A DNA stretch of 64,000 bases from Candidatus Eiseniibacteriota bacterium (GTDB taxonomy: Bacteria; Orphanbacterota; Orphanbacteria; Orphanbacterales; Orphanbacteraceae): assembly GCA_043809585.1 (NCBI GenBank), contig JBDROZ010000070.1, positions 79,122-143,121 of the forward strand, in the 5' to 3' direction. The position numbers were made by a program, and so were the translations under genes. Positions 245 to 15,061 of this stretch are shown piece by piece. Within the stretch, counting starts at the first letter, position 1. Every line of letters begins with the position of its first letter. The notes under the pieces are model-generated. The model ran no database searches, had not been told where the DNA came from, and was given only the letters and a program-made list of their open reading frames with translations.

Positions 245-2119
245 ATGAGACGGTACGACATCATCGTCATCGGAGCGGGACACGCGGGGTGCGAGGCGGC
301 GCTGGCGCCGGCGCGGATGGGCCTCTCCGTTCTGGTGCTCACCATGGACCGGAACGCCGTGGCGCGGATGTCGTGCAATCCCGCCATCGGCGGTCTCGCG
401 AAGGGGCAGCTCGTCCGGGAGATCGACGCCCTCGGCGGGGAGATGGCCCTCGCCATCGACGCCACGGGCATCCACTTCAGAATGTTGAACAAGAGCCGGG
501 GACCGGCGGTCCGCGCCCCCCGGGCCCAGGCGGACCGGGAGGCGTACTCCGCCTACATGGGCCGGATCGTGGGGGAGCAGGCGAACCTGGCGCTCGAGGA
601 AGGGGAGGTCGCCGACCTGCTCGTCGACAACGGCGCGATTGCGGGCGCCGTCACGGCGGCGGGAGAGACGATCGGCGCGGGGGCGGTGATTCTCACGGCC
701 GGCACCTTTCTCGGCGCGTGCATGCACGTGGGGGACCGGCGAGTCGCCGGAGGTCGGCGGGGAGAACCGGCGGCGGAGGGCCTCGCGAGGAAGATTCGCA
801 CCCTCGGTTTCCGTACGGCCCGCCTCAAGACGGGAACCCCCCCCCGGGTCCGGGGCGCGACCATCCGCTACGAGCGGACCGAGGAACAGAGGCCGGACGA
901 CCCGCCGGTCCCCTTTTCCTTCCGCACGCCGCGCATCGAACGCCCCCAGATCTCCTGCTGGATCACGAGGACGACGGGCGAGACCCACGACGTGATCCGG
1001 GGCGCCCTCGATCGATCCCCCCTCTTCACGGGGAAAATCGAGGGCGTGGGACCGCGCTACTGCCCATCCATCGAGGACAAAGTGGTCCGCTTCGCCCATC
1101 ACCCCGCGCATCAGATCTTCCTCGAGAACGAGGGGGGGGGCGATGACCTCGTCTATCCGAACGGCATCTCCACGAGCCTCCCGGAGGACGTGCAGCTCGG
1201 GTTCTTGAAGACCATCCCCGGCCTCGAGGAGGCCGAGATGGTTTGGCCCGGTTACGCCGTGGAGTACGACTTCTTCCCCACCGACCAGATCCGGCGCTCC
1301 CTGGAGACGAGGCTCGTCCGCGGGCTCTACTTCGCGGGACAGGTGAACGGCACGTCCGGCTACGAAGAGGCGGCGGCTCAGGGGTTGATGGCGGGGATTA
1401 ACGCGGCGCGGAAGCTCGGCGGCGAAGCCCCGATCGTTCTCGGCCGCGCCGAAGCGTACATCGGCGTCCTGATCGACGACCTGGTAACCCGCGAACCGGC
1501 GGAGCCGTACCGCATGTTCACCTCCCGGGCCGAACACCGGCTGCTCCTCCGGCACGACACGGCGGATCTCCGCCTCGCCCCTCTCGGCGCGCGTCTCGGC
1601 CTTCTCCCGGAGGAAGAGCTCGAGCGGGCGAAGACGAAAGACACCCTCGCGAAACGGGAGATCGAGTATCTGGACCAGAGGGCCGTCGCGGGAGAGGTCG
1701 CGAGCCGGCTCGTCTCGTCCCGGGGGGGCGAACCCGTCGCCGGGCCCGCCCGGCTCGCCGCGCTCCTCCGGCGGCCGGAGATCGTGTACGAGGACATCCT
1801 TCCCCTCCGGAACGGGGAGGCGCCCCCCCCGGAAGAGGTCCGACGGGAGGTGGAGACGCGGATCAAGTACGACGGTTACGTGAGGCGCCAGGAGCGGATC
1901 GTCGAACGCCTCGCATCGATGGAGAATCGGCCCATTCCCCGGGGATTCGGCTATGACGGGGTGCGGGGGTTCTCCGGTGAGGGGCGCGAGAAGCTCGTCC
2001 GCTTCCTGCCGGAAACCGTGGGAGGGGCCTCCCGCATCGACGGAGTCACGCCGGCGGACATCTCCCTGCTCGTCGTGCACCTCGACCGCCACGCCCGGAC
2101 GAGGCGGGAAGCGACATGA
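245..2119 (+). CDS. mnmG: tRNA uridine-5-carboxymethylaminomethyl(34) synthesis enzyme MnmG (GidA)
   Basis: [67 protein letters not shown] motifs; 624 aa. Confidence 0.98.
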
Positions 2120-2775
2120 GCTCCAGGCTCCGGAAGTTCGTGGAGCGCTCCGCGACCCTCGGCCTCACGCCCTGCGAAGACGCCGCGGATCGCCTCGAGC
2201 GGTTCACCGTCATGATCCTGAACAAAGGCGTCCGGCTCGCCCTCGTCTCGAAGGCGGACCTCGGGCCCCGCTCCCTCGCGGACAAGCATTTCGCCGACGC
2301 CCGGAGCGCCCTCCTCTTCGCCGGCCCGCCGCCGGGGGCGCGGGTGCTCGACTTCGGCGCCGGCGCCGGCGTCGTCGGCGTCACCTGGTCCCTCCTCCGC
2401 CCGGACCTCAGGGTCACCCTTCTCGAGTCGCGGCACAAGAAGGCCCACTTCCTCCGTACCGTCGTGGAAGGGCTTCCCGTCGAAAACGCGGTGGTCCTGG
2501 AAGGCCGGGGCGAAGATGCCGCGCCCCCCCATTCCTTCGATCTCGTGGTGAGCCGCGGCATGGCCACGGACCGGAAGATCCTCCGCGCCTATCACGACCT
2601 CCTCGCCCCGGAGGGGTCGGTCTTCCTCTTCAAGGGCCCCGAGAGCGGGTCCGCGGCGATCGAACTCCTCGCCTCCGACGGGCGCTTTGCGGCGCCCGAA
2701 ACGATCGAGATCTCCCTGCCCCATGAAAAGGTCCGCGTGTTCGTGAAGGCGGTGCGTGCGGAGCCCGAAGAGTGA
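2116..2775 (+). CDS. rsmG: 16S rRNA m7G527 methyltransferase RsmG (GidB)
   Basis: [16 protein letters not shown] motif, [18 protein letters not shown]; overlaps the mnmG stop (ATGA). Confidence 0.9.
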
Positions 2776-2982
2776 GTCTTCCTTGGTCTATACACCTACG
2801 GCCTGGAACGACCGCGTCGAAATACTGCAATCGTCAGTCCAATGCAGCCCGACAGCGATGAACCCGGCTTCCTTGTCCCGCGCTCACTCCCCCAACACCC
2901 AACACGGAAAATCCCGCCGCACCTTTCGGCACGGCGGGACACGCGTTCGAAATGCGCAACGAAGAAGACGGAGGGCCGTCCC

Positions 2983-3369
2983 CTACTCCTCGGAGTTTTC
3001 CTCTTCCTCTTCTTCCCCGGGCAGGCCGTTCGTGCCCGTGGCAGCGTGCGCGTCTTTGCGCCGCTTCGTCCTCTTCTTGTCGATCTTCTTGTTGATCAAT
3101 CTTTTCGTCTTGTCCGAAGCTCGGTCGATGACGTTCATCATTTCTTCGCCCTTCTCGTGAAGGACGAGGGTGTCGCCGTTCCTCATCGTGACCAGCACCT
3201 TGCACTCTTTGTCGAACCCGCCCCGCGGGCCGTTCGCGTCGGCGAGCCGAACCGAGATCCGTCCGACCATCGGTTCGAGCCGGTCGAGGGCGAACCGGAA
3301 TCGCTTGTCCACATGATCCAGGAGGTTGTCGGTCAGGGTGATGTTCAAGCCGTTCACCTGCAGATGCAT
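2983..3369 (-). CDS. hpf: HPF/RaiA family ribosome-associated protein (short type)
   Basis: RFALDR...VRLADANGPRGGFDKECKV...IDRA pattern; SD GAGGAGG upstream. Confidence 0.85.
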   Translation of the reverse strand: MHLQVNGLNITLTDNLLDHVDKRFRFALDRLEPMVGRISVRLADANGPRGGFDKECKVLVTMRNGDTLVLHEKGEEMMNVIDRASDKTKRLINKKIDKKRTKRRKDAHAATGTNGLPGEEEEEENSEE

Positions 3370-3688
3370 TCGAGACCCTCCTCTAATTGCCGGCCGGGCT
3401 TCCGGAGAGGGACGGACGCAAAAAGGCGCGCCGATTCCTCGTCGCGCCTACCGTTCTTCTCGTGGGCTTGGGGGTGCGATACCCGGCCATTCATCATCCT
3501 CTATCTTCAATCTGCCCTATCTTCGGTTTCCCGGCAAAAGAAAAATCGGGACCGATTTCGGGCATCCGGGGGAACTCCTCGCCGTGCGGCAAGTTCCGCC
3601 GACCGGACAGGGATTACAACCCCGGAGGATGGAAAGGTTCCCCGGGACCCGCGCCGACAACGCGTTGGTGGACAAGGAGATGGCCGGA

Positions 3689-5644
3689 CTACTCCTCCCG
3701 AAGTTCCGGGAGATCCCGGTATGCTTCGAGGGCCTCCGGGTTCGCGAGGGCGTCGGCGTTCTTCACCGGCCGGCCGTGGATCGTCTCCCGCACGGCGACC
3801 TCCGTGATCTTCCCCGAGATCGTGCGCGGGATGGCGGCGACGGCGATGATCTTCGCGGGCACGTGGCGGGGCGAAGCCTCCCGGCGGATCTCGTCGCGGA
3901 TGCGCTTCATCAAGGCGCCGTCCAGGGCGACCCCCTCCTTGAGGCGGAGGAAGAGGACCACCCGGACGTCCTCTTTCCACTCCTGAGGGGCGGCGAGCGC
4001 CTCCACCACTTCGTCGAACCGCTCCACCACGCGGTAGATCTCGGCCGTGCCGATGCGGACACCCCCCGGGTTCAGCACCGCATCGCTCCGGCCGTGGATG
4101 ACCATGCCTCCCGATTCCGTGATCTCCGCGTAGTCGCCGTGGGCCCACACGTTTTCGAACCGGTCGAAGTAGGCACGGCGGTACTTCTCCCCATCCGGAT
4201 CGCTCCAGAACGCCGTCGGCATGGAGGGGAACGACGACGCGCAGACGAGCTCCCCCTTCTCCCCTTCCACGGAGCACCCGGCGTCGTCGAAGACTCGGAC
4301 GTCCATGCCCAGTCCCCGGCACTGCAGCTCCCCCCGCCGCACGGGGAGCACGGGGCTGCCGAGGGCGAAGCAGGAGATGATGTCCGTGCCCCCCGAGATC
4401 GACGAGAGCCGCACGTCGCTCTTGATCTCCCGGTAGACGTAGTCGAACGATTCGGGGGCCAAAGGGGAACCTGTGGAGAGAATCGAGGTCAGTGCTTCGA
4501 GATCGTGGGTCTCCCCGGGGCGGAGCCCGATTTTTTCCATGGCGGCGATGTACTTCGCGCTCGTCCCGAAGGCGGTGAATCTCTCGCGGGCCGCGAAGTC
4601 CCAGAGCACGGGCTCCGGCCGGAGGGGGGAGCCGTCGTAGAGCATGATCGCCGTCCCGGAGGCGAGGGCGCTGACGAGCCAGTTCCACATCATCCAACCA
4701 GATGTCGTGAAGTAGAAGAGACGGTCCGCCTTCCCGAGATCGCCGTGAAGGACGTGCTCCTTCCGGTGCTGAATCAGCGTGCCGCCGGCGGAATGGACCA
4801 TGCACTTCGGAAGCCCCGTCGTGCCGGACGAGTACATGATGCAGAGGGGGTGGTCGAAGGGGAGCTGCGCGAACTCGGGGACGCTCCCGCCGTGGCCGCC
4901 GACGAACTCGTCCCAGAAGACGCTGCCTCTGACGGGCCCCATGTCCGGCTTCTCGTCGACGAAGGGAACGATCACGACCCGCTCGACGGAAGGGAGATCG
5001 CCGAGAATGGCACACACTTTCGAGATCGAATCGCTCTTCGTTCCGTTGTAGATCTGGCCGTCCGCCGTGAGGAGCACCTTGGGGGCCACCTGGCCGAACC
5101 GGTCGAGGACACCCCGGATGCCGAAGTCGGGGGAGCTGCTCGTCCAGACCGCGCCGAGACTCGCGGTGGCGAGCATGCCGATGACCGCCTCGGGTATGTT
5201 CGGGAGAAAGCCGGCCACCCGGTCCCCTTCTCCGACGCCGGCTCCGCGAAGGGCGCGGGCGAGTCGTCCGGTCTCCGCCCGGAGTTCCCCGAACGTGAGC
5301 CGCCGCTCCCGGCCTCCCTCGCCGCGAAAGACGACCGCTTCGGCGGCGGCGCCGCCCGCTTCGAGGAGGTTCTCGGCGAAATTGAGTCGGGCCCCCGGGA
5401 ACCAGCGGTCGTCCCGCATGGTCTCCCCGGGCGCGAGCACCTCGTCCCACAGCCGGGACGCACGGATCGCGGTGAACCGCCACACCGCCTCCCAGAACCG
5501 GGGGCGGTCGAGGACGGACCAACGCCGGAGATCGTGGTGGTTGCGGAGGTCGAGGCCGAGTTCCTCGTTCACCCTCCGGCGAAAGGCGGTCACCTTCGCC
5601 GCGGCGATACGCTCTTCCGTGGGGCGCCAGAGGATCTCGTTCAT
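3689..5644 (-). CDS. Acetoacetate--CoA ligase
   Basis: WFPGARLNFAENLL, SSGTTGLPKCMVH, GWMMWNWLVSAL, SISGGTDIISCF, HGRSDAVLNPGGVRIGTAEIY; 651 aa. Confidence 0.95.
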   Translation of the reverse strand: MNEILWRPTEERIAAAKVTAFRRRVNEELGLDLRNHHDLRRWSVLDRPRFWEAVWRFTAIRASRLWDEVLAPGETMRDDRWFPGARLNFAENLLEAGGAAAEAVVFRGEGGRERRLTFGELRAETGRLARALRGAGVGEGDRVAGFLPNIPEAVIGMLATASLGAVWTSSSPDFGIRGVLDRFGQVAPKVLLTADGQIYNGTKSDSISKVCAILGDLPSVERVVIVPFVDEKPDMGPVRGSVFWDEFVGGHGGSVPEFAQLPFDHPLCIMYSSGTTGLPKCMVHSAGGTLIQHRKEHVLHGDLGKADRLFYFTTSGWMMWNWLVSALASGTAIMLYDGSPLRPEPVLWDFAARERFTAFGTSAKYIAAMEKIGLRPGETHDLEALTSILSTGSPLAPESFDYVYREIKSDVRLSSISGGTDIISCFALGSPVLPVRRGELQCRGLGMDVRVFDDAGCSVEGEKGELVCASSFPSMPTAFWSDPDGEKYRRAYFDRFENVWAHGDYAEITESGGMVIHGRSDAVLNPGGVRIGTAEIYRVVERFDEVVEALAAPQEWKEDVRVVLFLRLKEGVALDGALMKRIRDEIRREASPRHVPAKIIAVAAIPRTISGKITEVAVRETIHGRPVKNADALANPEALEAYRDLPELREE

Positions 5645-5648
5645 ATTC

Positions 5649-6938
5649 TCAATCGGTGTGCGCGGGGAGGATCTTCCCCCGGACCTCGCCGAAGCCGATC
5701 TTGTAGCCGTCTCCCTGGCACCATCCGGTCATGGTCACCGTGTCGCCGTCCCGGAGAAAAGTGCACTCCTCACCGTTCGGGAAGACGATCGTCTTCGTCC
5801 CCCGCCAGGTGAGCTCGAGAAGGCTGCCGTAGCCCCCCTCGTCGGGGGCGCTGATCGTGCCCGACCCCATCAGGTCGCCGGCGCGGATGTTGCAGCCGGT
5901 CACCGTGTGGTGGGCGAGCTGCTGGCACATGCTCCAGTAGAGGTGCTTGAAGTTGCTGTTGCAGATCCGGTGGGGTTCCTCCATCGACTCGCCCCGAAGG
6001 AATACTTCCAGCCGGACGTCGTAACCGCAGTCCTCCCCCGATCGCAGATAGGGGAGCGGCTCCGGGTCCTGCTTCGGGCCGGGGCAGCGGAAGGGCTCGA
6101 GGGCGTCGAGGGTGACGATCCAGGGGGAAACGGACGTGGCGAAGTTCTTCGCGGTGAAGGGGCCGAGGGGCTGGTACTCCCACGCCTGGATGTCCCGGGC
6201 GGACCAGTCGTTCATGAGGACCACGCCGAAGATCCGCTCCCGCGCCTCGGCGGTGGAGAGCGGTTCGCCGATCGGGTTGGGGGGGCCGCCGACGAAGAAC
6301 GCCGTCTCCAGTTCGAAGTCGAGGAGCCGGCACGGCCCGTACGCCGGCGCGTCGGCGTCGGCGGGCTTCGTCTGTCCCCGGGGGCGCCGAACCGGCGTGC
6401 CGTCCACGACCACCGAGCTCGCCCGGCCGTGATAGGCGATGGGAATGTGAACCCAGTTCGGCATGAGGGCGTTCTCTTTCCCCCGAAACATGGTGCCCAC
6501 GTTCGTAGCGTGCTCCCTGGACGAGTAAAAATCGGTGTAGTCGCCGATGTCGACGGGGAGGATCATCTCGACGTCGCCTGGCCCGAGGAGGGCCCCCTTC
6601 CGCAGCTTCTCGTCGTCCCGGACCGACGGATCGTCGTCGCGCAGGACCCGCGACAAGATCTCCCGGGCCTCCCGCCACGCCGGGCGGCCGAGGGCGAGGA
6701 AGCGGTTCAGCGTCGGTGCGGCGAAGGCCCCCCGGAGGTCGCCCGCGGCCCTGTCGAAGATCCCGGCGTCGGCGAGGGCGGCGAGATCGACGACCGTATC
6801 GCCCACCCGGGTGCCGGCGCGCACCGCCCCCCCCTGCTTCCGGCGGAAGACCCCGAAGGGGATGTTCTGAATGGGGAAGTGCGATTCTTTGTCCGCCGAG
6901 ATGAACGATCGGATCTTCGGGTCCGTGGTCGTATCCAT
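5649..6938 (-). CDS. fahA: Fumarylacetoacetase
   Basis: FPIQNIPFG, GDYTDFYSSREHATNVG, PIAYHGRASS, LDFELE, NDWSARDIQAWEYQPLGPF; start taken at MDTTT (6938). Confidence 0.96.
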   Translation of the reverse strand: MDTTTDPKIRSFISADKESHFPIQNIPFGVFRRKQGGAVRAGTRVGDTVVDLAALADAGIFDRAAGDLRGAFAAPTLNRFLALGRPAWREAREILSRVLRDDDPSVRDDEKLRKGALLGPGDVEMILPVDIGDYTDFYSSREHATNVGTMFRGKENALMPNWVHIPIAYHGRASSVVVDGTPVRRPRGQTKPADADAPAYGPCRLLDFELETAFFVGGPPNPIGEPLSTAEARERIFGVVLMNDWSARDIQAWEYQPLGPFTAKNFATSVSPWIVTLDALEPFRCPGPKQDPEPLPYLRSGEDCGYDVRLEVFLRGESMEEPHRICNSNFKHLYWSMCQQLAHHTVTGCNIRAGDLMGSGTISAPDEGGYGSLLELTWRGTKTIVFPNGEECTFLRDGDTVTMTGWCQGDGYKIGFGEVRGKILPAHTD

Positions 6939-6948
6939 GTCGTTCCTC

Positions 6949-7968
6949 TTATGTCGTGTCGTCGACCGGTTCCATCCAACCGAGCGCGGCGAGATCCTCC
7001 CGGGGCTCGTCGAAGGAGCAGCTGCCGTAGCCGGTGGCGAACTCCCCACGGGCCCGGGCGATCTCCGCCGCCGGAACCGAATCTTTCTTCCACGAGAAGG
7101 AGTCGCCGTCGAAGGTGAAGTGGCCGGGCTCTTCGTCGGCGAGGCATGCTTCGATCTTCTCCGGGGTCCACGAGTGGGCGCGGGCGAGAATCGCCGCGCC
7201 GAACATGTTCAGGAAGCCGTGGCTCATGACTTCCAGCCCGGCGTCCCGGCGGCGCACGGGGTGATGGAGCCCGGCGGTCCACTTCATGGGAACGGCCCCG
7301 TCCCGGCAGGCGGCGATGGCGAAGGCGGCCGTGCCCGTGCCGGGGAAGGCGGAGAGATCGCCGCCGCCGCATCGCAGCTTGAAGCCGAACCGCGGTCCCC
7401 CCTCGCCGGCGATCTTCCCGATACCTTCGATCGCGGCCCGTGCCGAGACGAGCCAGCGCCGCGGGGCGGGCACCTCGACCCAGACATCGGGCACGGGGTT
7501 CCCCCCTCTTTCGAGGGGGGCGGCGAAGCGCCGAAGGTACTCGGCGACGCCGCCCGGCGAGCCGAGGGCCTCCGCCTCCTCGGGGAGCTTCGTCTCGATG
7601 GCGTCGATGCGGACCCGCGCGCCGTGTCTCTCCCGGAAGGCGGCCATGGCCCGGGCGTCCACCTCGAGAGCGGCGAGGGCCTCCTCCTCGTCGTCGCCGA
7701 ACCCGGCGAGCACGGAGAAACGGTACGGTTCCCCTTCGGCGGCAAAGAGCTCGTCGTGATAGGGGGCGAGATCGGCGAGCCCCCGGGCGGACGTGATGAA
7801 CCGGCCGAGGATCCACGCGTCTCTTCCGGCGCGGTACCGGGCGTAATTCCGGATCGCCCGGTCCGGGTCGAGGGCGGTGGGCGGGAAGAGCCCGGCGTAG
7901 TCGATCAGGCCCGCCATGAAAGCGCGGAACGATTCGTGCACCGGCCCGCCCCCCCCTACTCGATCCAC
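6949..7968 (-). CDS. Conserved hypothetical protein in the homogentisate operon (GLIDYAGLFPP / FKLRCGG / KWTAGLHHP / HGFLN motifs)
   Basis: 339-aa ORF between hmgA and fahA, overlapping the hmgA stop; conserved-looking Lys/His motifs; start uncertain (7968 or 7941). Confidence 0.8.
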   Translation of the reverse strand: MDRVGGGGPVHESFRAFMAGLIDYAGLFPPTALDPDRAIRNYARYRAGRDAWILGRFITSARGLADLAPYHDELFAAEGEPYRFSVLAGFGDDEEEALAALEVDARAMAAFRERHGARVRIDAIETKLPEEAEALGSPGGVAEYLRRFAAPLERGGNPVPDVWVEVPAPRRWLVSARAAIEGIGKIAGEGGPRFGFKLRCGGGDLSAFPGTGTAAFAIAACRDGAVPMKWTAGLHHPVRRRDAGLEVMSHGFLNMFGAAILARAHSWTPEKIEACLADEEPGHFTFDGDSFSWKKDSVPAAEIARARGEFATGYGSCSFDEPREDLAALGWMEPVDDTT

Positions 7969-9113
7969 GACCGGCCGTAGCCGGCGTCTTCACAGGCGAG
8001 GGCCGCCTTCGCCACGATCAGGGGATCGAAAGTGTCGATCATGACCGCCAGCTCCTTCGTCTCCTTCTTGCCGATCGACTCCTCGGTCTTGCCCGGTTGC
8101 GGTCCGTGGGGCAGCCCGTCCGGGTGAAGGGTAATCGATCCGCGCTCGATTCCCTTCCGGCTCATGAACGAGTCGTTGCAGTAGTAGAGGACCTCGTCGG
8201 ACATGACGTTCGAATGGACGTAGGGCGCCGGAATCGACTCCGGGTGGTAGTCGAAGAGGCGGGGGACGAAGGAGCAGAGCACCCACCGGTCCCCCTCGAA
8301 AGTCTGGTGGACCGGCGGCGGTTGGTGGATGCGCCCCGTGATCGGCTCGAAGTCGTGGATGCTCATCGCCCAGGGGTAGTAATACCCGTCCCATCCGACC
8401 GTGTCGAAGGGGTGGTGATCGAGAATGACGCGATGGAGCATGTTCTCCTTCTTCACGACGATCGGGAAATCGCCCCTCTCGTCGAAAGTGTCGAGCCGCT
8501 CGGGAGGCCGGATATCCCGCTCGCAGAACGGGCTGTGCTCGAGAAGCTGGCCGTGCTCGTTTCGGTAGCGGCGGGGCGTCCGCACGTGACCGGCGCTTTC
8601 GACGACGAGGAAGATCGCCTTCTTCCTGCCGAGCCGGTAGCGGTGGATGATACCCCGGGGAATGACGAGGTAGTCCCCGGCGCGGAAACAGATCGGCCCG
8701 AACTGGGACTCGAGGACGCCCCCCCCTTCGGTGACGTAGACGATCTCGTCCCCCTGGGCGTTCCGGTAGTAGAAGTCGTCGTCCTCCCCCGGCATGGCGA
8801 GGGAGATCGCGACGTGGGTGTTGTAGAGGAGCGGCTCCCGGTCGAGGACCGGGCTCGGGCCGGGCGCCGGGAGGCGGTGAGTGCGGAAGTGCCTCATCCG
8901 GAGCGTCGGGTCCGGATCCCGTTCCCAGCGGAGGTCCCGGATCTTCTCGGTATTCTTCACCGCGGTCGGGAGGTTGAGCGTGTAGAGGAGAGACTGGAGG
9001 CCGCCAAAGCCGAGGTTCCCCATCAGATGTTCGTAGTGAATGCCGCCGCCCTCCTTCTTGAAGGCGGTGTGGCGCTTGTGGGGGAGGCTTCCCAGTTTGC
9101 AGTAGAAGGGCAT
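7956..9113 (-). CDS. hmgA: Homogentisate 1,2-dioxygenase
   Basis: PHKRHT, HHPFDTVGWDGYYYPW, GRIHQPPPVHQTF, PYVHSNVMSDEVLYY, TLHPDGLPHGPQPG. Confidence 0.95.
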   Translation of the reverse strand: MPFYCKLGSLPHKRHTAFKKEGGGIHYEHLMGNLGFGGLQSLLYTLNLPTAVKNTEKIRDLRWERDPDPTLRMRHFRTHRLPAPGPSPVLDREPLLYNTHVAISLAMPGEDDDFYYRNAQGDEIVYVTEGGGVLESQFGPICFRAGDYLVIPRGIIHRYRLGRKKAIFLVVESAGHVRTPRRYRNEHGQLLEHSPFCERDIRPPERLDTFDERGDFPIVVKKENMLHRVILDHHPFDTVGWDGYYYPWAMSIHDFEPITGRIHQPPPVHQTFEGDRWVLCSFVPRLFDYHPESIPAPYVHSNVMSDEVLYYCNDSFMSRKGIERGSITLHPDGLPHGPQPGKTEESIGKKETKELAVMIDTFDPLIVAKAALACEDAGYGRSWIE

Positions 9114-9144
9114 GGTGGTTTCACCTCCGCGCGCGGGAAAGGCC

Positions 9145-10230
9145 CTACAGATTGCCCCGGCGCGCCTGCTCCCGCTCGATCGCCTCGAAGAGGGCCTTGA
9201 AGTTCCCCTTGCCGAAGCTCTGGCAGCCGCGGCGCTGGATGAATTCGAGGAAGAGCGTGGGGCGGTCCTCCACGGGCCTGGTGAAAAGTTGCAGGAGGTA
9301 GCCGTTCTCGTCCCGATCGATCAGGATTTTCAGCTCCTCGATCTTCTTCTTGTCTTCTTTGATCTCTCCGACCCGGTCCCACACGTCTTCATAATATGTG
9401 GAGGGCACGTCGAGGAACTCGACGCCGTTCTCCCGGAGCCTCGTGATGGTCGAGATGATGTCGCCGGTGAGAAGGGCGATGTGCTGCACCCCCGCGGTGA
9501 CGTGGAAGTCGATGTACTCCTGGATCTGGCTTTTGCGAAGCCCCTTCGCCGGCTCGTTGATCGGCATCTTGATGACCCGGTTCGGGTTCGCGACGACCTT
9601 GCTCCGGAGGGCGGTGAACTCGGTGGAGATGTCCTTGTCGTCGAAGGACATGAGCTGGTGGAAGCCGAAGGTCTGGATGTAGAACTCGGCCCAGTGGTCC
9701 ATCTGTTTGATCTCGACGTTGCCGACCACGTGGTCGACGGTCAGGAGCCCGGTGGCTTTCCCCTTGCGTTCCCGCGCCTCGAAGCCGGGGAGGAATGGTC
9801 CGTCGTAGTTCTTCTTCGAGAGGATCGAGTGGATGGTGTCGCCGTAAGTGCGTACGGAGGCGCGCCGCACCGTACCGTTGTCGTCGGTGACGTCCATCGG
9901 GTGGACGAGGGGGGACGCGCCCCGCTTCACGACTTCGGTGAAGAGGGCGTCGACATCGTCCACCTCGAAACAGACGTCTTTGACGCTGTCGCCGTGAAGG
10001 AGGTGGAAGATGTTCATGGAGTTTTCGTGGTTCATGGGGGCGCTGAAGACGAGGTTGACGTCCCCCTGGCGGAGGGCGTAGGAGGCGCGGTCCCGGTGGC
10101 CCGTCTCGGGGCCGAGGTAGGCGATCTGATCGAAGCCGTAAGCCTTCCAATAGTAGTAGGCCGCTTGGAGTGCGTTTCCGACGTACAGCTCGACGTGGTG
10201 GATTCCCTTGATCGAAAGAGGATCAGCCAT
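9145..10230 (-). CDS. hppD: 4-hydroxyphenylpyruvate dioxygenase
   Basis: [57 protein letters not shown]; start at MADPL. Confidence 0.97.
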
Positions 10231-10370
10231 GTTCATCCATCCCCTGGGTCGCGAAGATTGATCGGGTGCTCTGTCCGTCCCGGGCCGGGGGGAGGGCCCG
10301 CAACGAAGTCGAAATACGGGGGTTGTCTCTTTCATGCGGGGGCGGCCCGTCCCGCCGCCGGCCCTTCGGA

Positions 10371-10379
10371 ATAGTAACA
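10371..10379 (-). promoter_or_regulatory. Putative extended -10 promoter (TGtTACTAT) of the hppD operon
   Basis: Motif ~140 nt upstream of the hppD start. Confidence 0.4.
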
Positions 10380-10437
10380 CAGGGAGGGGAGAGCGCAAGG
10401 GGGGGTGGGCGGGGCGGATACCCAGGAAATCCCAATT

Positions 10438-11875: not shown

Positions 11876-11970
11876 GCGGGACCGGGACTCGATGATCCGG
11901 CTCGCGACGATCAGAATGGAGAACTGACCTCCCGCTCATCGACCGGAGTGAGGAGCGCCGACCCAGGAGG

Positions 11971-12492
11971 ATGACCGGAATGAGAATCGTGATGCTCGTG
12001 CTTGTGATCGCCTCGGTGATGTTCGTATCGGCCGGGGCGGAGCCGCCGGGGTTTCGGGACGATCTGCTGGATCGGCTGGCGGGGGCGTGGGTCATGACGG
12101 GAATGATCGCGGGAGAGGAGACGACCCACGACGTCGTCGCCGAGTGGGTGCTCGGCCATTACTATCTCCGCCTTTCCGACATTTCGCGGGAAAAGGACGA
12201 GCAGGGTGCTCCGGAGTACGAGGCGATCGTCATCATCGGATGGGACGAGCCGTCGAACCGGTATGCCTGCCTCTGGCTCGACTGCACGGGTGGGGGGGGG
12301 CTTGGAGGTCCGATCGGCTACGGCGCGCGGAGCGACGACGAGATTCCTTTCGTATTCGACGACGGCACGGGAAGCGTCATCCGTAACACCTTTCGATACG
12401 TGCGGGACGAGGATGCCTGGACTTGGCTCATCGACGTCGAAAGAGAGAGCGGACGAACGTCGTTCGCGCGGGTGACCCTGACGAGACCGTGA
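11971..12492 (+). CDS. Secreted hypothetical protein (DUF1579-like beta protein)
   Basis: Signal peptide; LLDRLAGAWVMTG, EWVLGHYYLRL, YEAIVIIGWD. Confidence 0.7.
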   Translation: MTGMRIVMLVLVIASVMFVSAGAEPPGFRDDLLDRLAGAWVMTGMIAGEETTHDVVAEWVLGHYYLRLSDISREKDEQGAPEYEAIVIIGWDEPSNRYACLWLDCTGGGGLGGPIGYGARSDDEIPFVFDDGTGSVIRNTFRYVRDEDAWTWLIDVERESGRTSFARVTLTRP

Positions 12493-12535
12493 CCCCGGGC
12501 GCCTGGAAGGAGATCGACCCACGGCCATACGCGTA

Positions 12536-12712
12536 GAACTCGTTTCAAAACCCCTTCCTGCTGCTGGCGGCTGCAGGGACGACCGGCTTCGTCCTCGGGC
12601 GAAAATGTCCTGGGCGGCCCGTCCATGGCCGCTTCCGGGCATTCTCGCCCTCGATCCTCGCTTTCCGGCCCTTCGCTCGCCCTCGCGACGAAAGGGGTTT
12701 TGAAGTGAGTTC
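12536..12712. mobile_element. MITE-like non-autonomous element (~177 bp) with 21-bp terminal inverted repeats
   Basis: GAACTCGTTTCAAAACCCCTT (12536-12556) vs AAGGGGTTTTGAAGTGAGTTC (12692-12712), 19/21 complementary; internal long hairpin ~12597-12650; no transposase. Confidence 0.7.
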
Positions 12713-12835
12713 CAATCTTCCCCCAATCTTCTCTGGCTATTTCCCAATTCTACGGCGTGCCGAAAGCCCGCTCGTTTCTTATCTTTAAGGAACGAGACCC
12801 CCCAAAAAAGCCCGCACCCGAGAAAGTGGAAACCG

Positions 12836-15061
<2,226 letters not shown>

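Follow-up and report, generated by a model that had tools for sequence, protein, structure and literature searches.

The window, meaning the whole stretch of 64,000 nucleotides that was analysed, carried a tightly packed set of reverse-strand genes in the order hppD, a short hmgA-like gene, an unnamed gene (hereafter X), fahA and acetoacetate-CoA ligase, which is the order of the pathway (Table 1). The same order had been proposed in a first-pass annotation of this DNA, and the family matches bore it out, with an hmgA member that was short and divergent. That member scored 44.5 bits against TIGR01015 (cut-off 510.75) and matched human HGD (1ey2) at E = 1.8e-6; it is presumed to be a divergent homogentisate 1,2-dioxygenase. 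The coordinates of hppD are those of its longest open reading frame (ORF), in which the family match begins at residue 64, and the true start may be further downstream. The start of fahA was the ATG at 6938, with its frame confirmed from the sequence. The spacer between X and fahA looks like a Shine-Dalgarno site, so X and fahA may be translated as a close pair. No regulator was found, as Pfam matched none of the small ORFs in the interval from hppD to its neighbouring gene, and none of those on the strand opposite the ligase.

Table 1. Position and family assignment of the genes and of the spacer at the X locus, in the direction of transcription (positions are those of the window)
Feature	Position	Strand	Length, match or remark
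hppD, 4-hydroxyphenylpyruvate dioxygenase	9145..10398	(-)	TIGR01263, 434.4 bits vs cut-off 277; glyoxalase-type Pfam domains
hmgA-like short cupin	7956..9113	(-)	385 aa; HgmA_N (E 1.7e-7), Cupin_2
X, candidate maleylacetoacetate isomerase	6949..7941	(-)	330 aa from the likely start; longest ORF extends to 7968
Spacer, X TAA to fahA ATG	6939..6948	(-)	10 nt, GAGGAACGAC, read from the sequence
fahA, fumarylacetoacetase	5649..6938	(-)	429 aa; TIGR01266, 609.1 bits vs cut-off 375.3; FAA_hydrolase_N and FAA_hydrolase
Acetoacetate-CoA ligase	3689..5644	(-)	TIGR01217, 925.9 bits vs cut-off 520.9; starts 4 nt past the fahA stop

The longest ORF of X (6949..7968, reverse strand, 339 aa, GTG start) was found in the ORF list as first described, and its translation held the four motifs quoted with it (DYAGLFPP, FKLRCGG, KWTAGLHHP and HGFLN). 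The protein record of X (P0002) had 330 aa and homologues shared its start point, so the GTG at 7941 was taken as the likely, family-consistent start, 14 nt past the TAG (7958-7956) of the hmgA-like gene. In the 330-aa numbering, the residues considered were D14 and Y15 (DYAGLFPP), E116, E156, K188 and R190 (FKLRCGG), K220, T222, H226 and H227 (KWTAGLHHP), H241 and N245 (HGFLN), R298, and S307 and C308 (GSCSF). X belongs to a very large family without a name, in which it is conserved as a single-copy gene, and, because its homologues number in the thousands, its frame was taken as the real one at this locus; overlapping ORFs in other frames (6871-7980, forward; 6707-7993, reverse) had no family match.

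X was not named by any sequence or family search. Pfam gave no match for X or for the 42 aligned members of its family, including no GST domain, no PF01791 and no recognisable thiol-binding domain, and NCBIfam gave no match at E <= 0.01, so none to TIGR01262, TIGR00126 or TIGR03083; the first-pass statement that X lacks a GST signature agreed with both. Searches of the PDB by sequence and by profile returned noise (best E 0.13-0.16), and ESM Atlas returned only clusters of hypothetical proteins. X carried the motifs of its own family (DYAGLFPP, FKLRCGG, KxTAGLHHP, HGFLN and FGSCSF), which showed little or no variation in the alignments. Neither the X family nor a gene for a non-GST maleylacetoacetate isomerase was found described in the full-text literature, with most subscription journals outside the coverage.

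The known isomerase gene maiA (TIGR01262, cut-off 171 bits) was absent from the whole 4.24-Mb genome that carries the window (97.47% complete), which extends to the genome an absence first noted in the window. No maiA scored over the cut-off in the 50 X-carrying genomes searched, which were mainly those with the longer loci among 80 carriers, the other 30 being left out. It was likewise absent from all three sampled phyla (10, 301 and 151 genomes), a comparison without maiA carriers. The sample of 151 was centred on G013, whose record title reads Alcaligenaceae, a label that is evidently wrong given the lack of maiA throughout its phylum mates. The best match to the MDMPI family (TIGR03083) in the source genome had 38.8 bits, below the cut-off of 50, and an internal stop. 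Two thiol-related genes of the same genome were also under their cut-offs, one BshC-like (234.6 vs 265.8 bits) and one GshB-like (194 vs 299 bits).

X is genetically welded to fahA. In 70 of 80 related loci, X was followed by a fahA gene in the same orientation; X came first in all 70 linked loci, and the estimated gap was at most 60 nt in 46 and at most 300 nt in 65 of them. Four of the ten loci without an adjacent fahA ended at a contig edge, and five of the remaining six had fahA elsewhere in the genome. The loci came from a dozen or so phyla and from marine archaea; the groups named in their record titles include Chloroflexota, Bacteroidota, Planctomycetota, Verrucomicrobiota, Bacillota, Acidobacteriota, Ignavibacteria, Calditrichia, Armatimonadota, Acidimicrobiia and Poseidoniia archaea. 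By the first-pass annotation, a maiA gene elsewhere in the genome, together with X homologues unlinked to hmgA and fahA, would have counted against the isomerase reading; maiA was absent and X was linked to fahA.

Fusions of X with its neighbours were predicted as well. Four protein clusters joined X to FahA (P0262, P0263, P0264 and P0267; P0263 with 7 members from 4 contigs), one joined HmgA to X (P0266) and two joined acetoacetate-CoA ligase to X (P0268 and P0269); for some of these, faulty gene calls on metagenome contigs could be the cause. Other pathway genes near X, when present, were hmgA, hppD and acetoacetate-CoA ligase. In 15 of the 80 loci, an hmgA-like gene of the short type neighboured X or fahA, a count made with the short-type query alone, which a canonical hmgA beside X would escape, and hppD lay within 10 kb in 12 of the 80. 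A predicted complex of FahA and X scored 0.15 (mark 0.32), which counts neither for nor against binding.

Co-occurrence of X with fahA, one of the checks suggested with the first-pass proposal, was seen in 4 of 4 X carriers in one order and in 55 of 56 in one phylum, counts that overstate the number of events, as the sampled genomes are related and not independent. In the phylum of the source genome (10 genomes), the source genome was the only one with X or fahA, and it had both. In the order of G017 (131 genomes), fahA was present in four genomes and X in the same four, adjacent every time; the phylum-wide sample around G017 was uninformative (fahA in 1 of 131, G017 itself). In the phylum of G023, fahA was over the cut-off in 54 of 56 X carriers and split in one more, and in the phylum of G013 it was present in 7 of 8. 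The X carriers without fahA were two, G013 and G244, the latter with an X of a divergent sub-family. Conversely, among the 111 genomes with fahA in the phylum of G023, 57 had neither X (E <= 1e-20) nor maiA, the latter being absent from all 301 genomes of that sample; none of five X-less genomes had an X when rechecked at E <= 0.01. FahA is therefore workable without X, through another enzyme or through none.

Structure prediction and Foldseek, also suggested at the outset, gave a TIM barrel unrelated to the GST fold. The model of X (pLDDT 93.1) was an alpha/beta barrel most like deoxyribose-phosphate aldolase (DERA, DeoC), with a Foldseek match to DERA 5c6m at E = 8.1e-6. A second-look alignment (VIA) superposed the model on DERA 5c2x with Z 16.1 and rmsd 3.5 over 234 of 246 residues; its ranks 1-47 were all DERA entries (Z 13.8-16.3), and other TIM barrels came next (Z about 12). 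By its model, X is a (beta/alpha)8 barrel superposable on DERA, with the same best fold by two methods. Alignment of the X family with the DERA of the source genome by hhalign gave a probability of 0.07%, i.e., no sequence similarity. X further differs from DERA in being about 80 residues longer, including an insert of a beta-hairpin and a helix between strands 7 and 8, in its genomic context and in that the genome has a separate true deoC.

Residue conservation in 271 sequences was highest for R298 (271), followed by E116 and K188 (270 each), K220 (269), Y15 and N245 (267 each) and D14 (265). C308 was kept in all 260 family members outside the divergent sub-family, and C191 was not conserved (229 of 271). 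Of the near-invariant lysines, K188 lies on predicted strand 6 (185-189) and K220 on predicted strand 7 (219-221). In DERA, strand 6 bears the Schiff-base lysine and strand 7 the other catalytic lysine, which, by strand order, may be the counterparts of K188 and K220. The pattern of charged and polar residues on the predicted barrel strands would be typical of an enzyme active site. In the divergent sub-family, which has no linkage to fahA, the otherwise fixed R190, H226, H227, G306 and C308 were altered, so the fixed signature travels with the link to fahA.

The homogentisate pathway is textbook metabolism and, to our knowledge, its isomerase step is without a gene outside organisms with a GST-zeta. 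Classical reports of the 1970s-80s deal with gentisate and homogentisate pathways of Gram-positive bacteria that operate independently of glutathione. For Bacillus anthracis, the discussion section of a 2015 paper stated that no maleylacetoacetate isomerase gene was identifiable and that the fate of maleylacetoacetate was unclear (PMC4457819). X is the best candidate for this step: genomic context and structure prediction together suggest that it is probably a non-GST maleylacetoacetate isomerase (EC 5.2.1.2). The corresponding first-pass reading stood in that X is not homologous to GST-zeta, is tied to fahA by adjacency, predicted fusions and co-occurrence, and is not accompanied by a maiA- or MDMPI-type gene; X may also act independently of glutathione. 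The bypass hydrolase offered as its alternative fitted poorly and was not adopted as the main reading, since X is nearly always followed by a true fumarylacetoacetase.

As an isomerase, X would convert maleylacetoacetate (cis), produced by hmgA-type ring cleavage, into fumarylacetoacetate (trans), the substrate of FahA. The chemistry is proposed more tentatively than the reaction. The two carboxylates of the substrate might be held by R298 and R190, and the C4 carbonyl might be activated either by a Schiff base on K188, aided by K220, or by the cluster of H226, H227 and H241. C308 or a small cellular thiol could attack at C2, followed by rotation about the C2-C3 bond and departure of the nucleophile. 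With the tight coupling of X to fahA and the predicted fusions, the reactive product could be handed straight to FahA.

Besides DERA, three known systems are comparable with X in part. MaiA (HmgC, GSTZ1; zeta-class glutathione transferase, EC 5.2.1.2, TIGR01262) shares the reaction proposed for X, the place in the pathway and the operon position beside fahA. It differs in having a thioredoxin-like GST N-domain and a helical C-domain, whereas X is a TIM barrel by its model, without sequence relation to MaiA or a recognisable glutathione site, and is found in genomes without maiA. The thiol-dependent maleylpyruvate isomerases of glutathione-less bacteria, namely the mycothiol-dependent MDMPI (TIGR03083 family) and a cysteine-dependent enzyme of Paenibacillus, are non-GST answers to the analogous cis-trans step of the gentisate pathway, but they have a DinB-type fold and another substrate, and X has no family match to them. 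Maleate cis-trans isomerase, a cofactor-free member of the Asp/Glu-racemase superfamily with a cysteine nucleophile, offers a chemical precedent for the mechanism proposed here, as an enzyme cysteine attacks the double bond and departs again once the bond has rotated; its fold is unrelated, its substrate is smaller, and X has no sequence match in the PDB.

Among the other explanations considered, X could catalyse the same step with a small thiol other than glutathione (bacillithiol, cysteine, CoA or ergothioneine), as an analogue of the mycothiol- and cysteine-dependent maleylpyruvate isomerases. This is unlikely. In its favour, all other context evidence is identical to that for the favoured reading, the source genome has the BshC-like and GshB-like genes (both under their cut-offs), and Gram-positive bacteria are established to use mycothiol or cysteine for the corresponding step on maleylpyruvate. 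Against it, the fixed C308 would suit a nucleophile borne by the enzyme, X spans phyla of very different thiol chemistry as well as archaea, and it has no recognisable thiol-binding domain.

It is also quite unlikely that X has another job on the labile intermediates, such as keto-enol tautomerase, decarboxylase or hydratase, or clean-up of maleyl- and fumarylacetoacetate or their side products, with the cis-trans step being spontaneous or located elsewhere. The fahA genomes without X or maiA agree with such a role, in that a dedicated isomerase of this kind may be dispensable, and so does the nearest fold, an aldolase with carbonyl chemistry through a lysine. The invariable position of X ahead of fahA in linked loci argues against it, as do the predicted fusions with HmgA and with FahA, which place X between both; isomerisation is, by established pathway knowledge, the sole unassigned step between these two enzymes.

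Less probable again is a role of X as class I aldolase or lyase with a different substrate, in which case the X-FahA pair would serve some pathway that is not homogentisate breakdown; other diketo acids, too, are cleaved by enzymes of the FahA type. The DERA-like fold and the small number of loci with an hmgA-like gene or hppD nearby, which leave X-fahA as the conserved unit, are consistent with this explanation. Against it, the partner is a fumarylacetoacetase at equivalog level (TIGR01266), the pathway genes that do occur near X belong to homogentisate breakdown, the fusions with HmgA and the ligase were predicted, and the low hmgA count comes from a query that misses the canonical type. A non-catalytic X, acting as a regulator or assisting FahA as scaffold or chaperone, is highly improbable, as close genetic coupling and nothing else speaks for it, and the near-invariant charged and polar set on the barrel strands would be typical of an active site.

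If the isomerase reading of X is true, a hypothetical protein family of thousands would be assigned to the step, and genome-scale models of a dozen or so phyla, and of abundant marine archaea, would lose a pathway hole. The cis-trans isomerases would gain a new fold and probably also a new mechanism, and biocatalysis and the engineering of pyomelanin or of the tyrosine pathway would gain an isomerase that needs no glutathione. We know of no precedent for an aldolase-like barrel as a cis-trans isomerase. A bolder and rather doubtful reading is that X represents a new class of cis-trans isomerase with an aldolase-type TIM barrel, without glutathione, activating the enone of maleylacetoacetate through a K188 iminium and using C308 as the transient nucleophile; that in most phyla other than the proteobacterial ones, and in the marine Poseidoniia archaea, X would account for the missing EC 5.2.1.2 step of tyrosine breakdown; and that a flavin-reductase-like protein beside fahA would be an unrelated second substitute in other Bacteroidota. 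A flavin-reductase-like gene was present in 46 of the 57 fahA genomes without X or maiA in the phylum of G023.

Five tightly packed genes occupied positions 3689-10398 on the reverse strand of the window: hppD, an hmgA-like cupin gene, X (the candidate maleylacetoacetate isomerase gene), fahA and the gene for an acetoacetate-CoA ligase. Gene calls, family scores and junctions agreed with the operon containing X that had been described in the first-pass annotation, and the four motifs quoted there were all present in the X translation. Read directly from the sequence, the upstream junction of X consisted of the hmgA-like TAG (7958-7956), a 14-nt G-rich spacer and the GTG at 7941, and the downstream junction of the TAA (6951-6949), the spacer GAGGAACGAC and the fahA ATG at 6938. 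The longest frame of X covered 6949-7968; the recorded 330-aa form, from 7941, agreed with the N-termini of the family. The hmgA-like cupin matched human HGD (1ey2) with an E of 1.8e-6 and, judged by its scores, is no more than distantly related to canonical homogentisate dioxygenase. This short hmgA type was found in X-bearing and X-less loci alike, and therefore does not go with X. The GC content of the operon (0.65-0.72) was near that of its flanks. Just upstream of the end of the operon lay mnmG (gidA) and rsmG (gidB), a pair that is a frequent marker of the neighbourhood of the replication origin. Two flanking ORFs had no Pfam or NCBIfam match and may be non-genes, the DNA being GC-rich.

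Coordinates of the operon genes, their surroundings in the window, and the fahA-neighbouring flavin-reductase-like genes of other loci (L-numbers)
Feature	Position	Strand	Remarks
hppD		-	TIGR01263, 434 bits
hmgA-like cupin	7956-9113	-	short, 385 aa; TIGR01015, 44.5 bits vs cut-off 510.75
X	6949-7941	-	330 aa
fahA	ATG at 6938	-	TIGR01266, 609 bits
acetoacetate-CoA ligase		-	TIGR01217, 926 bits
mnmG (gidA) and rsmG (gidB)	245-2775	+	
flanking ORF	2842-3807	+	321 aa
flanking ORF	11911-12939	-	342 aa
flavin-reductase-like	L089:5099-5998	-	beside fahA, in alignment A2
flavin-reductase-like	L092:7239-8150	+	beside fahA, in alignment A2
flavin-reductase-like	L093:7289-8212	+	beside fahA, in alignment A2
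flavin-reductase-like	L094:7745-8641	+	beside fahA, in alignment A2
flavin-reductase-like	L101:4093-5013	-	beside fahA, in alignment A2

X is a genuine protein, widespread but unnamed. No model in Pfam-A or NCBIfam matched it, none of the 42 relatives in its alignment had a consistent match to either collection, and comparison with the PDB by sequence and by profile returned nothing. A word-seeded search (8000 candidates scored) gave 5475 homologues at E ≤ 0.001, and an exhaustive search gave 4473 cluster representatives at the same threshold (1144 at E ≤ 1e-30). The closest homologue was 78% identical to X and the second 50%; homologues were named 'hypothetical protein' in their sources, and neighbours in the ESM Atlas were also unnamed. 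X was present as one copy in its own genome.

A scan with one genome per species gave at least 595 X-encoding loci, and the best 80 were analysed. A FahA homologue (42-66% identity to the FahA of the window) was encoded downstream of X on the same strand in 70 of these 80. Among these linked loci the gap was estimated at ≤ 60 nt in 46, and the count rose to 65 with a limit of ≤ 300 nt. Four of the 10 unlinked loci stopped at a contig edge; for the other six, fahA was elsewhere in five genomes (G035, G038, G043, G767 and G768) and absent from G013. Near X, the best 80 loci also encoded the short hmgA type (15 loci; the hmgA query was of the short type only), hppD (12) and the ligase (4). About a dozen phylum-level names appeared in the record titles of the X loci; two further loci came from archaeal MAGs of Poseidoniia, both carrying hmgA-X-fahA, with hppD additionally in one (L030). 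Nine longer proteins containing X were found, all predicted from metagenome contigs: four X-FahA, one HmgA-X, two ligase-X and two others. Fusion to the enzymes that flank the unassigned step gives the strongest single argument for X acting between HmgA and FahA. In P0265 (1068 aa) the X domain was joined to an S46 peptidase, and in P0270 (723 aa) to an FAD-dependent mono-oxygenase; these joins may be gene-call merges or additional aromatic-pathway fusions.

The expected co-occurrence of X with fahA was observed in several samples. Among 10 species genomes of its own phylum, X and fahA were each found only in the genome bearing the window; the operon was either gained there or lost in all sampled relatives. 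Within the order of a Paenibacillus carrier, fahA was present in 4/131 genomes and X in exactly the same four, about 30 nt apart, one of the four being the sample centre, picked for carrying X. In the phylum of G023 (301 genomes), 111 genomes had fahA above the cut-off and 56 had X (E ≤ 1e-20); of these 56 carriers, 54 had fahA, G341 had a split fahA and G244 had none. X occurred in 8/151 genomes of the phylum of G013, seven of them with fahA. Across these samples, then, X is almost never found without fahA. No maiA scored above the cut-off in 50 X carriers (50 of the best 80 loci, mostly the longer ones), in the 301 genomes of the G023 phylum or in the 151 of the G013 phylum. With maiA lacking throughout both phyla, its absence from X carriers need not be a sign of the predicted anti-correlation. 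G013 itself (locus L009), a 7.8-Mb MAG, had X and lacked fahA; its record title, 'Alcaligenaceae', looks wrong given the absence of maiA from all 151 genomes.

More telling against a simple picture, 57 of the 111 genomes with fahA in the G023 phylum lacked X. Five of the 57 were rechecked at E ≤ 0.01 and still gave no X, and twenty fahA neighbourhoods of X-less genomes gave none even at E ≤ 10. A Flavin_Reduct (PF01613) protein of about 300 aa with a conserved C-terminal extension was encoded beside fahA in 5/20 X-less loci, directly 3' of fahA in three and one or two genes off in the others; four of the five were operons containing hmgA. Searching with the alignment of these five proteins (A2) gave full-length matches in 100/301 genomes of the G023 phylum. 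The flavin-reductase-like gene was present in none of the 39 fahA genomes with X ≤ 6 kb from fahA, in all 15 with an unlinked X (the flavin-reductase-like gene itself always ≤ 6 kb from fahA) and in 46 of the 57 without X, leaving 11 with neither. It was also present in 39 fahA-less genomes, at least 14 of which had it about 1.5 kb or less from a small FAH-family ORF (coordinates compared by eye). No genome of this sample combined a fahA-linked X with the flavin-reductase-like gene, a mutual exclusion of the kind expected if the two were alternatives for a single slot. A small number of deep lineages probably accounts for the split, however, which would then amount to few independent events. 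The flavin-reductase-like protein may be another stand-in isomerase; alternatively, it may partner FAH-type hydrolases in general.

The isomerase function proposed for X in the first-pass annotation was the best available interpretation but has to be qualified: fahA has at least one other non-GST neighbour besides X, and in many genomes it occurs with neither X nor maiA. As originally stated, we consider this function somewhat favoured; widened to include a thiol-dependent isomerase, it becomes quite likely. The sole basis for calling X 'glutathione-independent' had been the lack of a GST. In its own genome, a GshB-like gene scored 194 bits (cut-off 299) and a BshC-like gene 235 bits (cut-off 266), and no mycothiol-dependent maleylpyruvate isomerase-type (MDMPI) protein was above cut-off. 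A full-text literature search, with all supplements and most subscription journals outside its range, found no paper on the X family. According to PMC4457819, no maleylacetoacetate isomerase gene is identifiable in B. anthracis, whose operon is described there with fahA (hmgB) overlapping hmgA and without mention of an X-like gene; the paper also cites work from 1976 that reported maleylacetoacetate hydrolase in certain strains of Bacillus.

The AlphaFold2 model of X (42-sequence alignment; pLDDT 93.1, pTM 0.92) was an eight-stranded alpha/beta barrel with an additional hairpin and helix inserted between strands 7 and 8. Deoxyribose-phosphate aldolase (DERA) was the best structural match by every method: 5c6m with Foldseek (E 8.1e-6) and 5c2x with a second, independent all-against-all aligner (Z 16.1, rmsd 3.5 A, 234 residues). 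In a repeat structural alignment, DERA or DERA-derived entries took ranks 1-47 (Z 13.8-16.3), other barrels following from Z of about 12. X had no sequence similarity to the DERA of its own genome (hhalign probability 0.07%). The predicted scaffold is DERA-like, but X lies outside the DERA family.

Across 271 X-family sequences (numbering of the 330-aa form), R298 was kept in all 271, E116 and K188 in 270, K220 in 269, Y15 and N245 in 267, E156 in 266, D14 in 265, R190, H226 and C308 in 260, and C191 in 229; the remainder at C308 were 10 members of a divergent sub-family with T or S and one unaligned sequence. K188 and K220 were on predicted strands 6 and 7 of the model, which we take to be those bearing the Schiff-base lysine and the helper lysine of DERA. 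According to the titles of 7p76 and 9fd8, DERA variants among the structural matches were solved as iminium adducts of enals and act as catalysts of Michael additions. A barrel of the aldolase type can therefore make an enone reactive towards reversible addition at the beta carbon. Cis-trans isomerisation of maleylacetoacetate requires an addition of this kind, on which the mechanism proposed for X is built. R298 and R190 would hold the substrate carboxylates, K188 (as iminium) or histidines would activate the C4 carbonyl, and C308 or a cellular thiol would add at C2, followed by bond rotation and departure of the nucleophile.

The sequences of eleven unlinked X genes were examined: ten came from the 15 fahA genomes with unlinked X and one from G244, with that of G146 left out. 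All eleven belonged to one syntenic lineage (L102-L109, L114, L118 and L119; X near position 6000-7000). Otherwise fixed residues were changed in them (R190 to N/D, H226 to N/I, H227 to T/S/N/A, G306 to N), and C308 was T/S wherever the position aligned. From these substitutions, the divergent sub-family is probably a paralogue with a different function.
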